From: a virus
Taxonomy: Duplodnaviria > Caudoviricetes
Strand: one strand, 5' to 3'
Length of the DNA: 64,000 bases
Virus record (IMG/VR): IMGVR_UViG_3300034170_000057
Shown here: piece after piece, positions 6,396-26,851 of the stretch
Layout of the letters: every line of letters begins with the position of its first letter
How positions within the stretch are numbered: position 1 is the first letter of the stretch
Position numbers and translations under genes: made by a program
Notes under the pieces: model-generated
Told to the model about the DNA's origin: nothing
The model's database searches: none
The model's input: the letters and a program-made list of their open reading frames with translations, nothing else

Positions 6396-7087
6396 TGTCG
6401 ATTCAAAAAGAAATGTTCTTCAACCACGTGGCCGATGTGATCACCGCCAACCCTGAATGGATGGGGCAGTTGATCATGACCATACAGGGCGCGGTTCTGG
6501 AAAAGCTAGCGCACACTAACGCGGCACGTAGCGAAGCCGAATTCGCTTTGATGGGCATTATTGATTTGGTGCCGAAAAAGAAACTGGACGATAACCCGGC
6601 TGCTGCCACGAAAGCTAAACGGGTTTTGAGCCAGTGCGGTTCTTTCCGGGGCACGGAATACGCGAAACAACTGGAACAGGAAATCACGGCGGGCACGTTG
6701 CGTATTTCTGCACAGCGTGAACAACAGAAAGCAGACGACGCACAAGCCGAAAAAGAACGTGTGCAACGCCTGCGTGAAAACCGTGAACGCGAGCGCCACA
6801 AGAAGCACCCGCTATCGACCATTACCGGCGAATCGCTGGCGTGGTCTGTTGCCAACAACCAAAGCCATATAAAGCCGTACAAGGTCGATAGTGGCAAAGG
6901 CCTGTGGTCATTCCACGCGTGGGTGCTGGTAGTGAACGAAGAGGCGCCATCGCAGGCACAAGAGCGCTCAATGCTGTATGTGGGTGACGGTCTGCGTGGT
7001 CGCTACACATTCGCCACCGAAGCGGATGCACTGACCTCGATTGAGGAAATCACGAACTACGGAAAATCTTTGCCGGAGAAACAGTAA
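6395..7087 (+). CDS. Hypothetical protein with central charged coiled coil
   Basis: TAATG coupling; QREQQKADDAQAEKERVQRLRENRERER. Confidence 0.8.
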   Translation: MSIQKEMFFNHVADVITANPEWMGQLIMTIQGAVLEKLAHTNAARSEAEFALMGIIDLVPKKKLDDNPAAATKAKRVLSQCGSFRGTEYAKQLEQEITAGTLRISAQREQQKADDAQAEKERVQRLRENRERERHKKHPLSTITGESLAWSVANNQSHIKPYKVDSGKGLWSFHAWVLVVNEEAPSQAQERSMLYVGDGLRGRYTFATEADALTSIEEITNYGKSLPEKQ

Positions 7088-7488
7088 TGAAAACGTACAA
7101 CGTGGTTACAGGCACCAATCGCGACCAATCTACTTTCTTGCTGGGTCACACCATCGGCAAACGGCTGGAACGTTTCGAATCTTTGATCGTGGTTGTTGCC
7201 GATCAGGATTTGCTTCCGTCACAATTGCGCGTGATGGGTGAATTCCAAAAGCCTTGCAAAGCGGTTGCAGTTTGTCACGGTGTGAGCCGGGTAGACGAAT
7301 GTATCGAGTATTACAAAAGCCTACCCGGCGATTCTGCGCCTAACATCCATATCGTTTATTGGATGCCTGCGCAAATCAAATACAAGCAAGATGCGGACGG
7401 CTGGATGCCGGTGGAAATCACCAGTGACCTTATCAAGCGCCAGATAGCACGCGCTGACGTTTCGACCATCACGCTTTTCGTGGAGTGA
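7087..7488 (+). CDS. Hypothetical protein, possible degenerate RecA-type alpha/beta fragment
   Basis: TAATG coupling; YNVVTGTNRDQSTFL occupies the strand-loop-helix position of a Walker A but lacks GK[ST]. Confidence 0.6.
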   Translation: MKTYNVVTGTNRDQSTFLLGHTIGKRLERFESLIVVVADQDLLPSQLRVMGEFQKPCKAVAVCHGVSRVDECIEYYKSLPGDSAPNIHIVYWMPAQIKYKQDADGWMPVEITSDLIKRQIARADVSTITLFVE

Positions 7489-18280: not shown

Positions 18281-18666
18281 ACTGGCAGCACGGCACAACG
18301 CGTAGTGTCTTGCTGGTGGGTCGCTACGCAATTAAATTCCCCACTGTGGTCTGCTGGCGCAATTTCCTACGGGGCATTTTATGCAACGGTTCCGAGTACA
18401 CGTCCAGCAAAATGAACTGTGAATTTCTGGCACCGGTTGTGTGGCGTTCATGGTTAGACCTAGTGATCGTCATGCCCCGCGCAGATGTAAAGAGTCCAGA
18501 GGAAGACGACGAAATTCGTTTCGAATATCTCGAAGACTTTTGGCAGCGCGTGGACGCCAGCGAACAAGCAATCAAAGACATGATCTACGGAATCGTAGAA
18601 AACAAAATCTGTTCTGTCGGCAAAATAAACGGTGTGACCGTTGCCGTAGACTATGGGAGTATATGA
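18271..18666 (+). CDS. Miniature protein-kinase-like fold protein
   Basis: GTTRSV (Gly-loop/R), YAIKFP (VAIK Lys), NGSE (alphaC Glu), LAPV, ENKICSVG (catalytic-loop equivalent), VAVDYG (DFG equivalent). Confidence 0.6.
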   Translation: MQVNWQHGTTRSVLLVGRYAIKFPTVVCWRNFLRGILCNGSEYTSSKMNCEFLAPVVWRSWLDLVIVMPRADVKSPEEDDEIRFEYLEDFWQRVDASEQAIKDMIYGIVENKICSVGKINGVTVAVDYGSI

Positions 18667-19480
18667 ATTGGCCCGTCCTCTGAAAATCAAACGTCGTCCG
18701 GAACTCACTGCGTGCCTGAAGAAAAACGGCTTCCGCAAAAACGTCGAAGGTTCCGATAGCGACAACTGGGTTTACGAACACAAAGCAGACGAAAACCGCG
18801 TGGTCGTTATTTGCGCGTTCGAAATCGCGACGGATATCGTGAAGTACAAAGATTTCCCGATGGTGGAACCTGAGACGCCGATTGCAGATGTGATTGCGTA
18901 TATCGACTCCGAAATGGAATTGGTGAACAAATCTTTCAACGGCTTCAAAGCGCTGTTAGAAACTGTGCGCCAGCATGCGAAGGGCCTCGGTGTGAAAGGT
19001 CGTTTCGTGCCTAACGAAGTCGATACTCATTCGTGGGAATTCTTCGCTGATTGCTACAAAGCACAGCCGCTGTTCTTCCTGTCTGATCCGGGGCCGAATG
19101 CGAAAGTTGAACTCGGTTACAACTACAACGAATACCCGGTTGAAACCGCTTACGAAGTGTTGAGCATTTTGCAAGGCAAGGGCTTCGAATACTGGCCGTG
19201 CGGCGACGAACGTGTGATGTTCAAAGGTAAGTCGATTTTCACTTTCAAAACCTACGAAGATTTCATGCCGTTCATGTTTACGCACGGTCTGGTCCGCATC
19301 ATTGAGCGTATGGGCATGGCACAATTATCGTCCGTCTCTGATCCGACCTTGAACGAATTGCTTGAAGGTCAAACCGATGTGAAACACTACGTGGAAATCC
19401 AGCTGCGTCGTGCAATTAACACCGATGAATTCTTCAGCTACATCAAATCCAAAGTTGCTGAAAAGGAAACCGCAGAATGA
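18653..19480 (+). CDS. Hypothetical protein, paralog family A
   Basis: C-term FMPFMFTHGL...SDPTLNELLEG shared with 19477 and 26033 ORFs. Confidence 0.8.
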   Translation: MGVYELARPLKIKRRPELTACLKKNGFRKNVEGSDSDNWVYEHKADENRVVVICAFEIATDIVKYKDFPMVEPETPIADVIAYIDSEMELVNKSFNGFKALLETVRQHAKGLGVKGRFVPNEVDTHSWEFFADCYKAQPLFFLSDPGPNAKVELGYNYNEYPVETAYEVLSILQGKGFEYWPCGDERVMFKGKSIFTFKTYEDFMPFMFTHGLVRIIERMGMAQLSSVSDPTLNELLEGQTDVKHYVEIQLRRAINTDEFFSYIKSKVAEKETAE

Positions 19481-20520
19481 GCTGTGTAAACATCGTTACC
19501 AAAGGGCTAGAACGTCAGCTAGAAAAGCGCGCTGGCCTGATCAAGCAACTGCTGGAAATCGGTTTCATTAACAAACCAAGTCCTGACCGTTTCCGCTGGA
19601 ACCACGTCGAACTTATTCTGCTGGATTTCGATGGCCGTTGCCGCCTAACGGCAGGCTTGGATGACTCGGTTAATTTCTCTGCCCGGATCAAAGACGAAAC
19701 GATCCTGAAAAAGATCATGGTCTACGTCGATAAAACCAAAGCCGATCAGAAAATGTTCGACGACCTTTGCATGGACGTGCAGCACAAGCTGGAAGAAATC
19801 GGTATCTACGTCGTGCAACAGGTCAAGACGCCCAAACGTCCGTCGCGCATGCGCCACAAGATTGCCGTTCGTGATCCGTGGGCGTCCAACTTTGCAATGA
19901 AAATCAACGGCGACCGTTTGTTCCGTCTGAGCTTCGACGATCACGGTGAGTTTCCGGACGAAGGGCGTATCGAACTCGATTACCGCAACGATTACGTCGA
20001 GGTAAAAACAGCTGACGACGTGATCAAAGTTTTGCAGGAAACATTGCCAGATGTTCGCGTTGTTGCCACGCTGAACAAGAATGCGATTTGCTCTTTCAGT
20101 TCGTACCGTATGTTCCTGCCGTACATTTTCAAATACGGCATTACCAGCATCAAAAGCGTGTCGTGCGATGTTGTGCAAACCACGGCTGATCCGGTGGCGA
20201 GCCGTCTGGTTGAAGCCGAGAAAGTCACCCGTGAATATTTCCGGATCAACCTGCGCAACAAAATGACGCTGGAAGATCAGGCGGCGTTGGGATCGGTTGG
20301 GCGTGCAAAAACACAGCCTGAAATTGTTGGGTACACAACGGTAAAAGAACTGGCGATATTCCTGTCGATCAAACCGGCTGCTATCGTCAAACACATGTTC
20401 AAACTTGGCACACCCGTGACGCTCAATCATGTACTTGAGAAAGAAACAGCGCAGGAAATTGCAGGAAGTTTCGGTCGCGGCACGCTGCCCGAGGAAATCA
20501 ACACAGGGGCCGCACAGTGA
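19477..20520 (+). CDS. Paralog family A protein with C-terminal translation initiation factor IF2 N-terminal domain
   Basis: [10 protein letters not shown]...[11 protein letters not shown] family motif; C-term [47 protein letters not shown] matches IF2_N. Confidence 0.75.
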
Positions 20521-21206
20521 GCAATAAAAAACCGTACAGCAGCCGTACCGCCGATAAATTCGTCCTGCGCCTTCTCGACGATATGCGCCAGCAAATCAAA
20601 GCAATTTCCGAAGCCTCGCACCGCAGCATGAATAGCGAAATGATCGCGTGGTTAGAAACCATGCTGGAAATTCACGCGGAAACCGGCGTCATTCCTACGC
20701 TTGCGGATATGCGTAGCGGCGCCGAAATGGAAGCACAAAACCGACTGATGCGTGCGATATTCCAGCGTCTGTTGGAAGCTGGCAGCTGGCACATGAGCGC
20801 CGTGGAATTCGATTCGCATGATCACCATGTGGACGGCGTGCAATTCGAAAAAGAAATCAAAGAAGTTCTGGCGCAGGCGGTGCCTAAAATCCGTAATGTT
20901 GTGCAGCAAGTGGAACCGCATACGCTTGAAGTTTCTGAACCTTACAGCGTTCCGTTCGATAAACTGGAAGCGTTGGTTAAGTCGTTGCCGAAACCCTACG
21001 GCCCGGATCTTTTGCCACCAGTGCCGCAATTTATTCCGCAAGAAGGCATGCCGGTTTTTGTCAGCAGTATCGGGCGTAACGGCGTTGTTCGTCATATCTG
21101 GATCGGTGGCGACAACAAGTGTCAAATAACTATGGCCCGTGTGGAAATGTTCGGCTGTGGTTGCGTAGAAGTTCCGGCCCATGATTTGTGTGCGCCGAAG
21201 CCATGA
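20517..21206 (+). CDS. Arc-family (AmrZ/AlgZ-like) transcriptional regulator with extended C-terminus
   Basis: [21 protein letters not shown]...[14 protein letters not shown] vs Amr[22 protein letters not shown]...HHRSMNSEIIARLE; GTGA coupling. Confidence 0.85.
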
Positions 21207-23257: not shown

Positions 23258-24625
23258 ATGCATTGCACGTATCACAATATCGGTTTCGACCTGAACAAAA
23301 TGATGGTCGAAGAATTGCCGTGGACCCAAGCCTTCTACCGCGAAATGCCGAAACCTGAATCGACGGCTGACGCGGAATTCTACCAAGACGTGAAAGATTA
23401 TTTCGCGTTCCCTCTCGAACACAGTGCCAACATGCCGGTCTACAATTTGCACCTGAGTTCCTGTGCAAAAATCGAAACCGTTTTCGAATCCGCATACGCA
23501 ATGCTGGTCGAAGCTGTGGGCAAGCTGTTCAACGAATCCAACGATACGCTGATGCACTATATGGGCTGCGATTTCCTGCGCAAGCACCCGTATTTCATCG
23601 ACTACGCCAAGTTCACCTATCGCGACCATGGTTCGGCCCGCCAAGCAATCTACGGGCGCTTTGACGCTGCATTCGATCCTGTGACTGAGGAAGTTACGGG
23701 TATTTACGAATTCAACGGCGACACGCCTACCATGCTTTTCGAATCCGTAGCGTTGCAGAATCGCGTCTGTGAATCCGTGACGGGCGATGTTGAATTGCAG
23801 CTGAATAGTTTCTATCCGCTGCTGCAACAAATGTTCGAAGACATGGGCGAGATTCCGGGCACCGCTGCTGTGATCCATGACAGCAAATCCTTCGAGGATA
23901 CCGCGACCTGCGAAGTGCTGGCGCAAATCATCGGTGAGCATAACGTCTGCCTGTTTACTGACGTTTCCGAAATCGACTACGACTTCAACAACAAAACCAA
24001 TCCGTTCGCGGTTGGCGACGATAATCTCTCGGTTATTTTCGCATTGGTTCCGTGGGAAGAAATGGTCGAGGGTTTCCCGCAGGCGTACAAGGAATGGGCC
24101 AACTGGGCTAACCACGTCACAATGCTGGAACCGGCGTGGCGTTGGTTCACCAGTAACAAAGGCATTTGGGCCTACATCACGCACCTAATGTTTACCAACG
24201 ATGAATTCCACGCGAAATACGGCATGCTTCCCGTGCTGGAAACCTACGTGGATAACCCGTTAGTTTTCACGGGCAAAACCGGCTACGTTTCGAAACCGAA
24301 AGTCGGTCGCATGAGTACCAACATCGAAATCCACAAGGCCGATGGCACCGTGGAATTCGCGACCGATGGCCCGTACAAAGACGACAAGGTTTATCAGGTC
24401 TACACAGCGCCGCACAAAGTCGATGGCCGGAACAATTTCATTATCGGAATGTTCATGGTTCCGGATATTGCATCCGATTACAATTCGCTGAAACAAGCGA
24501 CGGCAGCTACGCTGTGCATTCGCGAATTCGACTCGCCTGTATTGGGCGTGAAGAACGAGCGATTTATTCCACACGTTCTGATCGACGATTTGCCGGAACC
24601 GGACGAAGAAAACTTCGAGGGCTAA
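23258..24625 (+). CDS. Glutathionylspermidine synthase family ATP-grasp protein (YgiC/YjfC-like)
   Basis: IYGRFD, YEFNGDTPTMLFES, EPAWR...SNKGIWA, KPKVGRMSTNI, CIRE motifs. Confidence 0.85.
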   Translation: MHCTYHNIGFDLNKMMVEELPWTQAFYREMPKPESTADAEFYQDVKDYFAFPLEHSANMPVYNLHLSSCAKIETVFESAYAMLVEAVGKLFNESNDTLMHYMGCDFLRKHPYFIDYAKFTYRDHGSARQAIYGRFDAAFDPVTEEVTGIYEFNGDTPTMLFESVALQNRVCESVTGDVELQLNSFYPLLQQMFEDMGEIPGTAAVIHDSKSFEDTATCEVLAQIIGEHNVCLFTDVSEIDYDFNNKTNPFAVGDDNLSVIFALVPWEEMVEGFPQAYKEWANWANHVTMLEPAWRWFTSNKGIWAYITHLMFTNDEFHAKYGMLPVLETYVDNPLVFTGKTGYVSKPKVGRMSTNIEIHKADGTVEFATDGPYKDDKVYQVYTAPHKVDGRNNFIIGMFMVPDIASDYNSLKQATAATLCIREFDSPVLGVKNERFIPHVLIDDLPEPDEENFEG

Positions 24626-25711: not shown

Positions 25712-26046
25712 GCGAAGCATTCAAATACATCATGGTCGAAACCACCGATGAATCCGGTGACACTCACAATATTCCTGTGATGTTTCCGAAGTCGATCAAC
25801 CACGACAAAATGTACGAAGCAACCCACGCGGCAATTCGCCGTTCGGGTAACGGCCACCGTCCGGGCAAAGCTATCAGCGCCGGGTTTTGTGGCTACGGCC
25901 AAAACGGCAAAGTTTTCTGCCGTGGGTATTCCGAAACTCTGAAACTGGAATCGCGGAAAGGAATCGACGAAGCCATTTTCCAACAGGTAAGCACCTACGG
26001 CCATACGCGGGTTGCCGCAGCGGTGAAACCAAATGCCGACGTTTAA
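25708..26046 (+). CDS. Conserved phage hypothetical protein, paralog of 16353..16736
   Basis: KYIMV...IPVMFP..I.H...SAGF...C.G.S.TL.L.SR..D pattern. Confidence 0.75.
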   Translation: MSEAFKYIMVETTDESGDTHNIPVMFPKSINHDKMYEATHAAIRRSGNGHRPGKAISAGFCGYGQNGKVFCRGYSETLKLESRKGIDEAIFQQVSTYGHTRVAAAVKPNADV

Positions 26047-26851
26047 TCCGGTCGAAGGCGAAATCCTTTTAGAAAAACTGCTGGCGGCTGGGTTCACCGG
26101 GATTGGCTTAGAGCGTTTCCGCCAGCACGTCGGCTGCACTGGCGTTGAACTGCTGTCCAACGGCGTTAAGGTGACGATCCAAAAGCACTCACAAGGCCTG
26201 CGACACACCGTAGTTTACACGGGCACCCGTCTAGCAAAAGATGAACCCGTAGACGGCACGGAATCGCTTGCGGCATTCCTGATTGCGGCTGCTGCAAAAA
26301 ATAAAGAATTGGATGCGCGAAGCCAGAAAGCAATCGACACCATTCTGAATGTGTTCGGGGTTAACGGTACACAACTTGAGGTACGCACAAAAGATTTGAG
26401 CGGGCGGCAAGTGGCGCGATTCAGTGCAGGGCCGCATGATCTTTTCTATCTGGCGCACGCCGGTCGCGGGGCGGCTGTAACCAAAGGTCCGTTCCGTTTT
26501 GTTGCGTCGTACATGTACGATTCTGCTGATGAATGGGAAGAGAACGAAGGGCCTGAAAATTCGTTCTATTTCTCGGATACTGCGCAGTTGCTCGCGGGAA
26601 TCAAGAACTTGTTTTCGCAGCCACCTGTGCCGCGTAAATACGAACGTGTTGGAAACGATATTGCTACGCTGGAAGAACCCGGCGCGTTTCTAGATATCAT
26701 TTTCGAATACGGCCTTACGTGGGTTACGTCGAAAGAAGTTGATACTTTCCGCACCACAAGCTGCCCGACTACCAACCGTTTACTCGACGGTGACAATCAG
26801 ACCATACGGCTGTACGCGCTAGGCTTCAAAGTGGCCCCCGCAAAACTGTAA
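26033..26851 (+). CDS. Hypothetical protein, paralog family A
   Basis: FLDIIFEYGL...SCPTTNRLLDG. Confidence 0.8.
   Translation: MPTFNPVEGEILLEKLLAAGFTGIGLERFRQHVGCTGVELLSNGVKVTIQKHSQGLRHTVVYTGTRLAKDEPVDGTESLAAFLIAAAAKNKELDARSQKAIDTILNVFGVNGTQLEVRTKDLSGRQVARFSAGPHDLFYLAHAGRGAAVTKGPFRFVASYMYDSADEWEENEGPENSFYFSDTAQLLAGIKNLFSQPPVPRKYERVGNDIATLEEPGAFLDIIFEYGLTWVTSKEVDTFRTTSCPTTNRLLDGDNQTIRLYALGFKVAPAKL

Follow-up and report, generated by a model that had tools for sequence, protein, structure and literature searches.

Genetic organisation of the locus

The DNA analysed in this study is a stretch of 64,000 nucleotides (the window), which carries genes for a tail sheath, tail fibres, virion proteins and a glutathionylspermidine-synthase-like protein. 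No close relative of the window was found among 50,697 deposited phage genomes, and homologs of its genes were carried by metagenomic contigs of 200-316 kb; on these grounds its sequence identifies the source as an uncultured jumbo myovirus. The glutathionylspermidine-synthase-like gene (23258-24625; PHROG 6215, E 6e-104) was found downstream in all related phage loci.

The open reading frame at 19477-20520 encodes a protein of 347 aa that ends in a domain resembling the IF2_N domain of IF2, a translation initiation factor of bacteria, and is referred to here as the carrier gene. It is located within a tightly packed run of co-directional genes, its ATG overlapping the stop codon of an upstream paralog (ATGA) and its own stop codon overlapping the GTG start of the next gene (GTGA, 20517-20520), thus bearing out the translational coupling to an AmrZ-like gene proposed in the preliminary description. 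The product of that next gene matched the Pfam Arc family (47.8 bits) and Arc-like PHROGs. The features of the locus are as follows.

18653-19480, plus strand: paralog of the carrier core without IF2_N, 275 aa
19477-20520, plus strand: carrier gene, 347 aa
19477-20298, plus strand: phage-specific core (residues 1-274), with orthologs both with and without the IF2_N add-on
20299-20334, plus strand: linker (residues 275-286), the left edge of an in-frame cassette missing from the relative L003
20335-20478, plus strand: IF2_N domain of the N2 type (residues 287-334), a predicted three-helix module with Ser-Ile-Lys at the positions that in IF2 contact rRNA helix h16
20479-20520, plus strand: C-terminal tail, with an AGGGG Shine-Dalgarno-like run and the GTGA overlap, both serving the Arc-like gene
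20517-21206, plus strand: gene of an Arc/AmrZ-like ribbon-helix-helix regulator, 229 aa, the constant downstream neighbour of the IF2_N module
26033-26851: further paralog of the core

Homologs of the core were found in phages only. No match from which a function of the core could be read was obtained in Pfam (also with E values as high as 10), in PHROGs or in the ESM Atlas, and the AlphaFold2 (AF2) model of the 347-aa protein had a mean pLDDT of 54.6, with the core poorly modelled. HicB and polo-box were considered as folds of the core and rejected, the Foldseek probabilities being below 0.1. No GTPase domain, no C1/C2 domains (the fMet-tRNA-binding part of IF2) and no other additional Pfam domain were detected in the 347-aa protein, which distinguishes it from a whole IF2. 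The three core paralogs (18653-19480, 19477-20298 and 26033-26851) have a C-terminal region of about 60-110 residues in common, with 27-29% identity, and differ in their N-terminal parts; they could be assigned neither to a family nor to a confident fold.

Identification and subtype of the IF2_N domain

The preliminary description had placed an IF2_N domain at positions 20320-20475, which correspond to residues 282-333 of the carrier. Pfam IF2_N (PF04760) matched residues 287-334 with 41.8 bits (E 9.4e-11), above the curated gathering cut-off of 25.3 bits, and so confirmed the presence of the domain. When the PDB sequences were searched using phmmer, matches were obtained to IF2 only, namely to residues 267-314 of Pseudomonas aeruginosa IF2 (E 4.9e-10, 40.3 bits; the N1 repeat scored -2.9 bits) and to residues 309-365 of E. 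coli IF2 (E 5.3e-6), the latter being the stretch that had earlier been quoted for comparison. No PHROG family matched the domain. Of 300 genomes sampled evenly across the class, 274 matched the domain, and every match listed fell within a long open frame of about 400-1170 aa, in most cases of the length of IF2; the sample includes one unpublished genome, G040, on which no claim made here depends. The match is far beyond what chance would be expected to give, and the profile and sequence searches indicate a true IF2_N module derived from a host.

N2 is the second IF2_N repeat of IF2 and lies just before the G domain. Two IF2_N repeats are present in many bacterial IF2 proteins (PMC4611024), and the distinction between them matters for function: N1 binds the KH2-AR1 region of NusA (PMC12297416), whereas N2 has been seen by cryo-EM, in both P. 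aeruginosa and E. coli, docked on h16 of the 16S rRNA at the shoulder of the 30S subunit, near uS4 (PMC9192638, PMC12820379, bioRxiv 10.64898/2026.06.26.734871). The earlier statement that IF2 N-domains are ribosome-associating modules is thus true of N2 (PMC9192638, PMC12820379) and does not extend to N1. Separate N1 and N2 profiles were built solely from gammaproteobacterial IF2, and the window domain scored 52.3 bits on the N2 profile and 4.8 bits on the N1 profile. Every related phage copy likewise scored as N2. The profiles therefore assign the phage domain to the N2 subtype, not to the NusA-binding N1.

Unlike the rest of the AF2 model, the IF2_N domain was modelled with a pLDDT of about 80. 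The top Foldseek matches of the modelled domain were the ribosome-bound N2 entries 7uiu and 7unv_x (rmsd 0.9-1.0 Å over 51 columns), and the former, entitled 'N2 sub-domain of IF2 bound to the 30S subunit', was matched with 51% identity and a probability of 1.0. The predicted fold is accordingly the three-helix bundle of ribosome-bound N2. The fold is also helix-turn-helix-like: weak Pfam HTH matches were found, and Foldseek reported a resemblance to the DNA-binding domain of pSK1 Par (8csh_A, probability 0.91, TM 0.70).

The main interface between N2 and h16 is made by Ser277, Val278, Lys279 and Arg259, with a tail wrapping the minor groove of h16 (PMC9192638, PMC12820379, bioRxiv 10.64898/2026.06.26.734871). 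At the positions equivalent to Ser277-Val278-Lys279, the window domain has S-I-K and the phage copies P0002, P0019 and L008 have K-V-K, G-I-K and S-V-R, respectively; N1 has D-T-P. The two lysines that follow the contact motif are also kept in the window domain, and N1 differs at these positions. Modules of the type found in contig L128 are without the lysine at the Lys279 position. As for the tail bearing Arg259, the linker in the window contains Arg and Lys in a part of the alignment that is rich in gaps; the h16-wrapping tail is not conserved among the phage proteins and is absent from P0019.

Compared with N2 of IF2 itself (P. aeruginosa residues 266-312, PDB 7UIU/7UNV; E. coli residues 295-370), the phage domain belongs to the same Pfam family and subtype with 51-64% identity, its predicted fold superposes at 0.9 Å, and Ser-Val-Lys is replaced by Ser-Ile-Lys. 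Unlike it, the phage copy stands apart from the G, C1 and C2 domains, and a phage encodes it at the C-terminus of an unrelated protein, as an add-on. N1 (E. coli residues 2-50, IF2N NMR structure) is likewise of the same Pfam family and has a related small fold, but differs from the phage domain in having other residues at the rRNA-contact positions.

Origin of the module

Of the 80 best matches in a pattern-seeded scan that covered a single genome for each species, 77 were labelled Pseudomonadaceae, with up to 65% identity; of the other three, two were labelled 'Pantoea sp.' and one was an unclassified Proteobacteria MAG. Within the even sample of 300 genomes, a Pseudomonas genome gave 48.4 bits, one other genome 44.5 bits, and the rest 37 bits or less. 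In a tree built from few columns, the copies of the window, P0001 and P0002 nested among Pseudomonas IF2, and two other phage copies were placed on a long branch. These comparisons agree with the host origin proposed in the preliminary description and indicate that the copy derives from a Pseudomonas-type infB; from the same evidence, the host of the window phage is probably Pseudomonas.

At third codon positions, the GC content was 0.81 for the host genes and 0.47 for the phage copy, and nucleotide identity between the two was at most about 64%. The copy is fully adapted to the codon composition of the phage, and the capture is therefore old. The four phage alleles compared were 64, 62, 53 and 49% identical to Pseudomonas N2 and 36-55% identical among themselves, each being at least as close to Pseudomonas N2 as to the other phage alleles (for the P0019 allele there is a tie at 53% between Pseudomonas N2 and the window allele). 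A star pattern of this kind is what one would expect were every allele constrained by one conserved target in the host.

The module as an in-frame cassette

Two of the seven homologs of the 347-aa protein carried IF2_N and the other five ended about 70 residues earlier, the gene order being identical in both groups. Alignment of the DNA revealed that the two forms differ by a clean indel of about 220 nt, in frame, where the upstream gene meets the Arc-like gene. The Shine-Dalgarno-like run and the GTGA overlap were present in the forms with and without the cassette, the last bases of the tail (AGGG..GCA..GTGA) being kept in relatives lacking it. Sister phages also differ, with L002 having the cassette and L003 being without it, and at least four changes are needed to explain the presence of the module on a tree of two flanking proteins. 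As an accessory in-frame cassette, the module has been gained or lost between near-identical phages. The earlier description of a domain grafted onto a phage protein is therefore apt for the window and does not hold as a fixed feature of the protein, given the forms without the cassette and the other carriers described below, a direct fusion to Arc among them.

Between the window and L125, the fold showed seven synonymous differences and one non-synonymous difference (dN/dS 0.04, against 0.37 in the core), and between the window and L002 its dN/dS was 0.26. By these ratios the module is under purifying selection. Synonymous divergence between the window and L002 reached 1.44 within the cassette, against 0.38 within the core; the alleles of the cassette are therefore older than the flanks, or have been exchanged.

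A different rearrangement was observed in L004 (2337-3236, protein P0003), where a deletion has taken out the IF2_N region together with almost the whole Arc-like gene, and the core now continues into roughly the final 16 residues of the Arc-like protein. The linker retained in L004 resembles that of P0002, so an ancestor bearing IF2_N is likely.

Carriers of the module and its link to the regulator gene

Other lineages were found by searching with the IF2_N domain alone, and in these the module occupied the same syntenic position. In all five module-bearing lineages of these myoviruses of about 300 kb, it was located directly 5' of the Arc segment. Its carriers are of three types: the 275-aa core, which bears it at the C-terminus (window); an unrelated 215-aa protein, likewise with the module C-terminal; and the Arc-like regulator, which bears it at the N-terminus. 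The second type was found in a 312-kb IMG/VR genome (L008/L014), where the module ends the 215-aa protein and the gene is coupled to the Arc-like gene by an ATGA overlap. [quoted passage not shown] A profile search revealed that the fused IF2_N-Arc architecture constitutes a family of at least nine clusters (P0019 and P0028-P0035). In P0028-P0035, the IF2_N part has drifted and several members lose the N2-specific lysines; the L128 module scores below the Pfam cut-off. The Arc-like gene was also present without the module in seven other distinct related genomes. The constant partner of the module is therefore the regulator gene, not the 275-aa core.

A predicted complex of the IF2_N module with the Arc-like protein received a score of 0.00; controls were not run, and the result is evidence neither way.

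The N-terminal segment of the L008 carrier (L008 2551-2700) and the small gene of L128 (7061-7237) are homologous, with 43% identity over 49 aa, and have the look of a ribbon-helix-helix motif. A ribbon-helix-helix reading of the L008 segment was not supported: hhalign gave a probability of 3.4% and Pfam gave nothing; a purpose-built Arc profile gave a weak match only, on the L128 homolog. In L128, the 17-nt word AAATTTGCAAGTAAGGG occurs twice (7037-7053 and 7249-7265), each time just upstream of the start of a gene, the two being the consecutive genes for the small ribbon-helix-helix-like protein and the IF2_N-Arc fusion, and it may represent a shared regulatory or ribosome-binding element.

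Putative function of the module

The best explanation of these observations, to which we give a probability of about one half, is that the phage N2 module docks on the shoulder of the host 30S subunit. It is suggested by what N2 does in IF2, by the retention of the contact residues, by strong purifying selection acting on the copy of the window type and by the star pattern of the alleles. The module would most likely bind the h16 region and, once docked, would tether the carrier protein to small subunits; through fusion or coupled synthesis, the Arc-like regulator might be tethered as well. Alternatively or additionally, the module would compete with the anchor of IF2. Several points weigh against docking. 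Within IF2, the N2 sub-domain works in concert with further ribosome contacts and with the h16-wrapping tail, and so the isolated domain may bind only weakly; at least the drifted Arc-fused branch (P0028-P0035) may have a different or relaxed role; and the fold is helix-turn-helix-like, the constant partner is DNA-binding, and many close relatives are without the module. The more specific proposal that the module is a portable 30S-shoulder anchor, tying the AmrZ/Arc-like regulator and other cargo to small subunits, is improbable. If true, it would mean a phage-encoded physical link from chosen promoters or operators to translation initiation, or a regulator parked on ribosomes.

The same constant association with a regulator could be read without reference to ribosomes, the module being a domain exapted to help at DNA, or at phage RNA, near the Arc/AmrZ-like operator and to extend or alter the specificity of the regulator. 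We regard this as possible although somewhat unlikely. A module that always adjoins or is fused to the Arc segment, that resembles the DNA-binding domain of Par in fold, that gives weak HTH profile matches and that has lost N2-specific residues in the fused sub-family would fit such a role. However, in the window and in L008 the module and the regulator are on separate polypeptides, most Arc-like orthologs work without the module, and the window-type copies keep 60-64% identity with host N2, the rRNA-contact motif included, while the phage alleles have no phage-specific consensus among them.

Fusion to, or coupling with, the regulator would equally fit a bridging role, in which the module mimics a protein-binding domain and contacts a factor at the transcription-translation interface, another partner or the Arc-like protein. 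IF2_N folds can bind proteins, as the interaction of N1 with NusA illustrates; yet the phage domain is of the N2 type, no protein partner of N2 is described in the IF2 literature cited here, and IF2 gamma, which retains N2, pulled down no NusA (PMC12297416). Binding to NusA was set aside on account of the subtype and the IF2 gamma result, and the wider protein-binding explanation is improbable. The patchy distribution, with nearest relatives lacking the module, and the L004 deletion, which took it together with most of the Arc-like gene, would be in keeping with a functionless passenger, the remnant of an accident at a gene boundary that is now being lost. That seems very improbable for a module with a confidently modelled fold, an intact reading frame in five lineages, and a dN/dS of 0.04 to 0.26, below the core value for the closest pair.

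N2 has been seen on the ribosome only from 2022 onward, and its role as a 30S anchor is still being worked out; a phage with nothing but the 50-residue anchor would offer a natural experiment on the module by itself. If the module docks on h16, phages would have a new route to the ribosome; proteins could be directed to the 30S shoulder with a compact tag, and a DNA-binding regulator might be connected with the initiation of translation.

Comparison with other phage and bacterial proteins

The neighbour gene of the window belongs to the family of Pseudomonas AmrZ/Arc-like ribbon-helix-helix regulators and their phage homologs. In the searches made, Arc-family proteins with IF2_N came only from these uncultured phage contigs, and of the named AmrZ/Arc proteins listed, none had the module. 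Huge phages are known to carry whole translation genes, among them those for initiation factors and ribosomal proteins. These too are host translation parts; here, in contrast, only a module of 50 residues is involved, recombined with phage proteins. A literature search, which was not aimed directly at the combination of 'N2 sub-domain' and 'phage', returned no description of a phage protein using IF2 N2. What is new is not the domain itself, which is known, but the fact that phages have captured it, shuffled it between carriers and fused it to a ribbon-helix-helix regulator.

Among the 50,697 deposited phage records, IF2_N matches were present in two only. One was a tblastn match to 'Pseudomonas phage Y6' (OQ572408.1, 42.6 kb, L001 2215-4737), which was rejected as a phage homolog: the record is marked UNVERIFIED and is unannotated, and the match is a complete P. 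aeruginosa-type infB of 840 aa that is probably host DNA. The other was gp51 of Xoo-sp14, a cultured Xanthomonas jumbo phage of 232 kb. Annotated as a 350-aa 'hypothetical protein' (QNR51742.1; MT939492.1 39356-40408, L142 1910-2962), gp51 contains two IF2_N repeats (Pfam 45.9 bits), the second of which scores as N2-type. The protein and its gene context are unrelated to those of the window, with no Arc-like neighbour, and no homolog of gp51 was found in other deposited phages. Xoo-sp14 makes a related protein accessible in a cultured phage.

A degenerate DNA pattern for the phage-type motif gave no match in IMG/VR; in metagenomes, the same pattern retrieved mostly alphaproteobacterial-looking IF2 genes, together with the L127/L128 fusion. 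Two further candidates from the representative search, P0008 (ankyrin repeats) and P0015 (a low-complexity repeat), were spurious. Another use of the IF2_N module outside IF2 was observed in P0012, a non-phage-looking protein of 354 aa in which two tandem IF2_N repeats are followed by a hydrophobic segment and next by a C-terminal region with a CxxCH motif.
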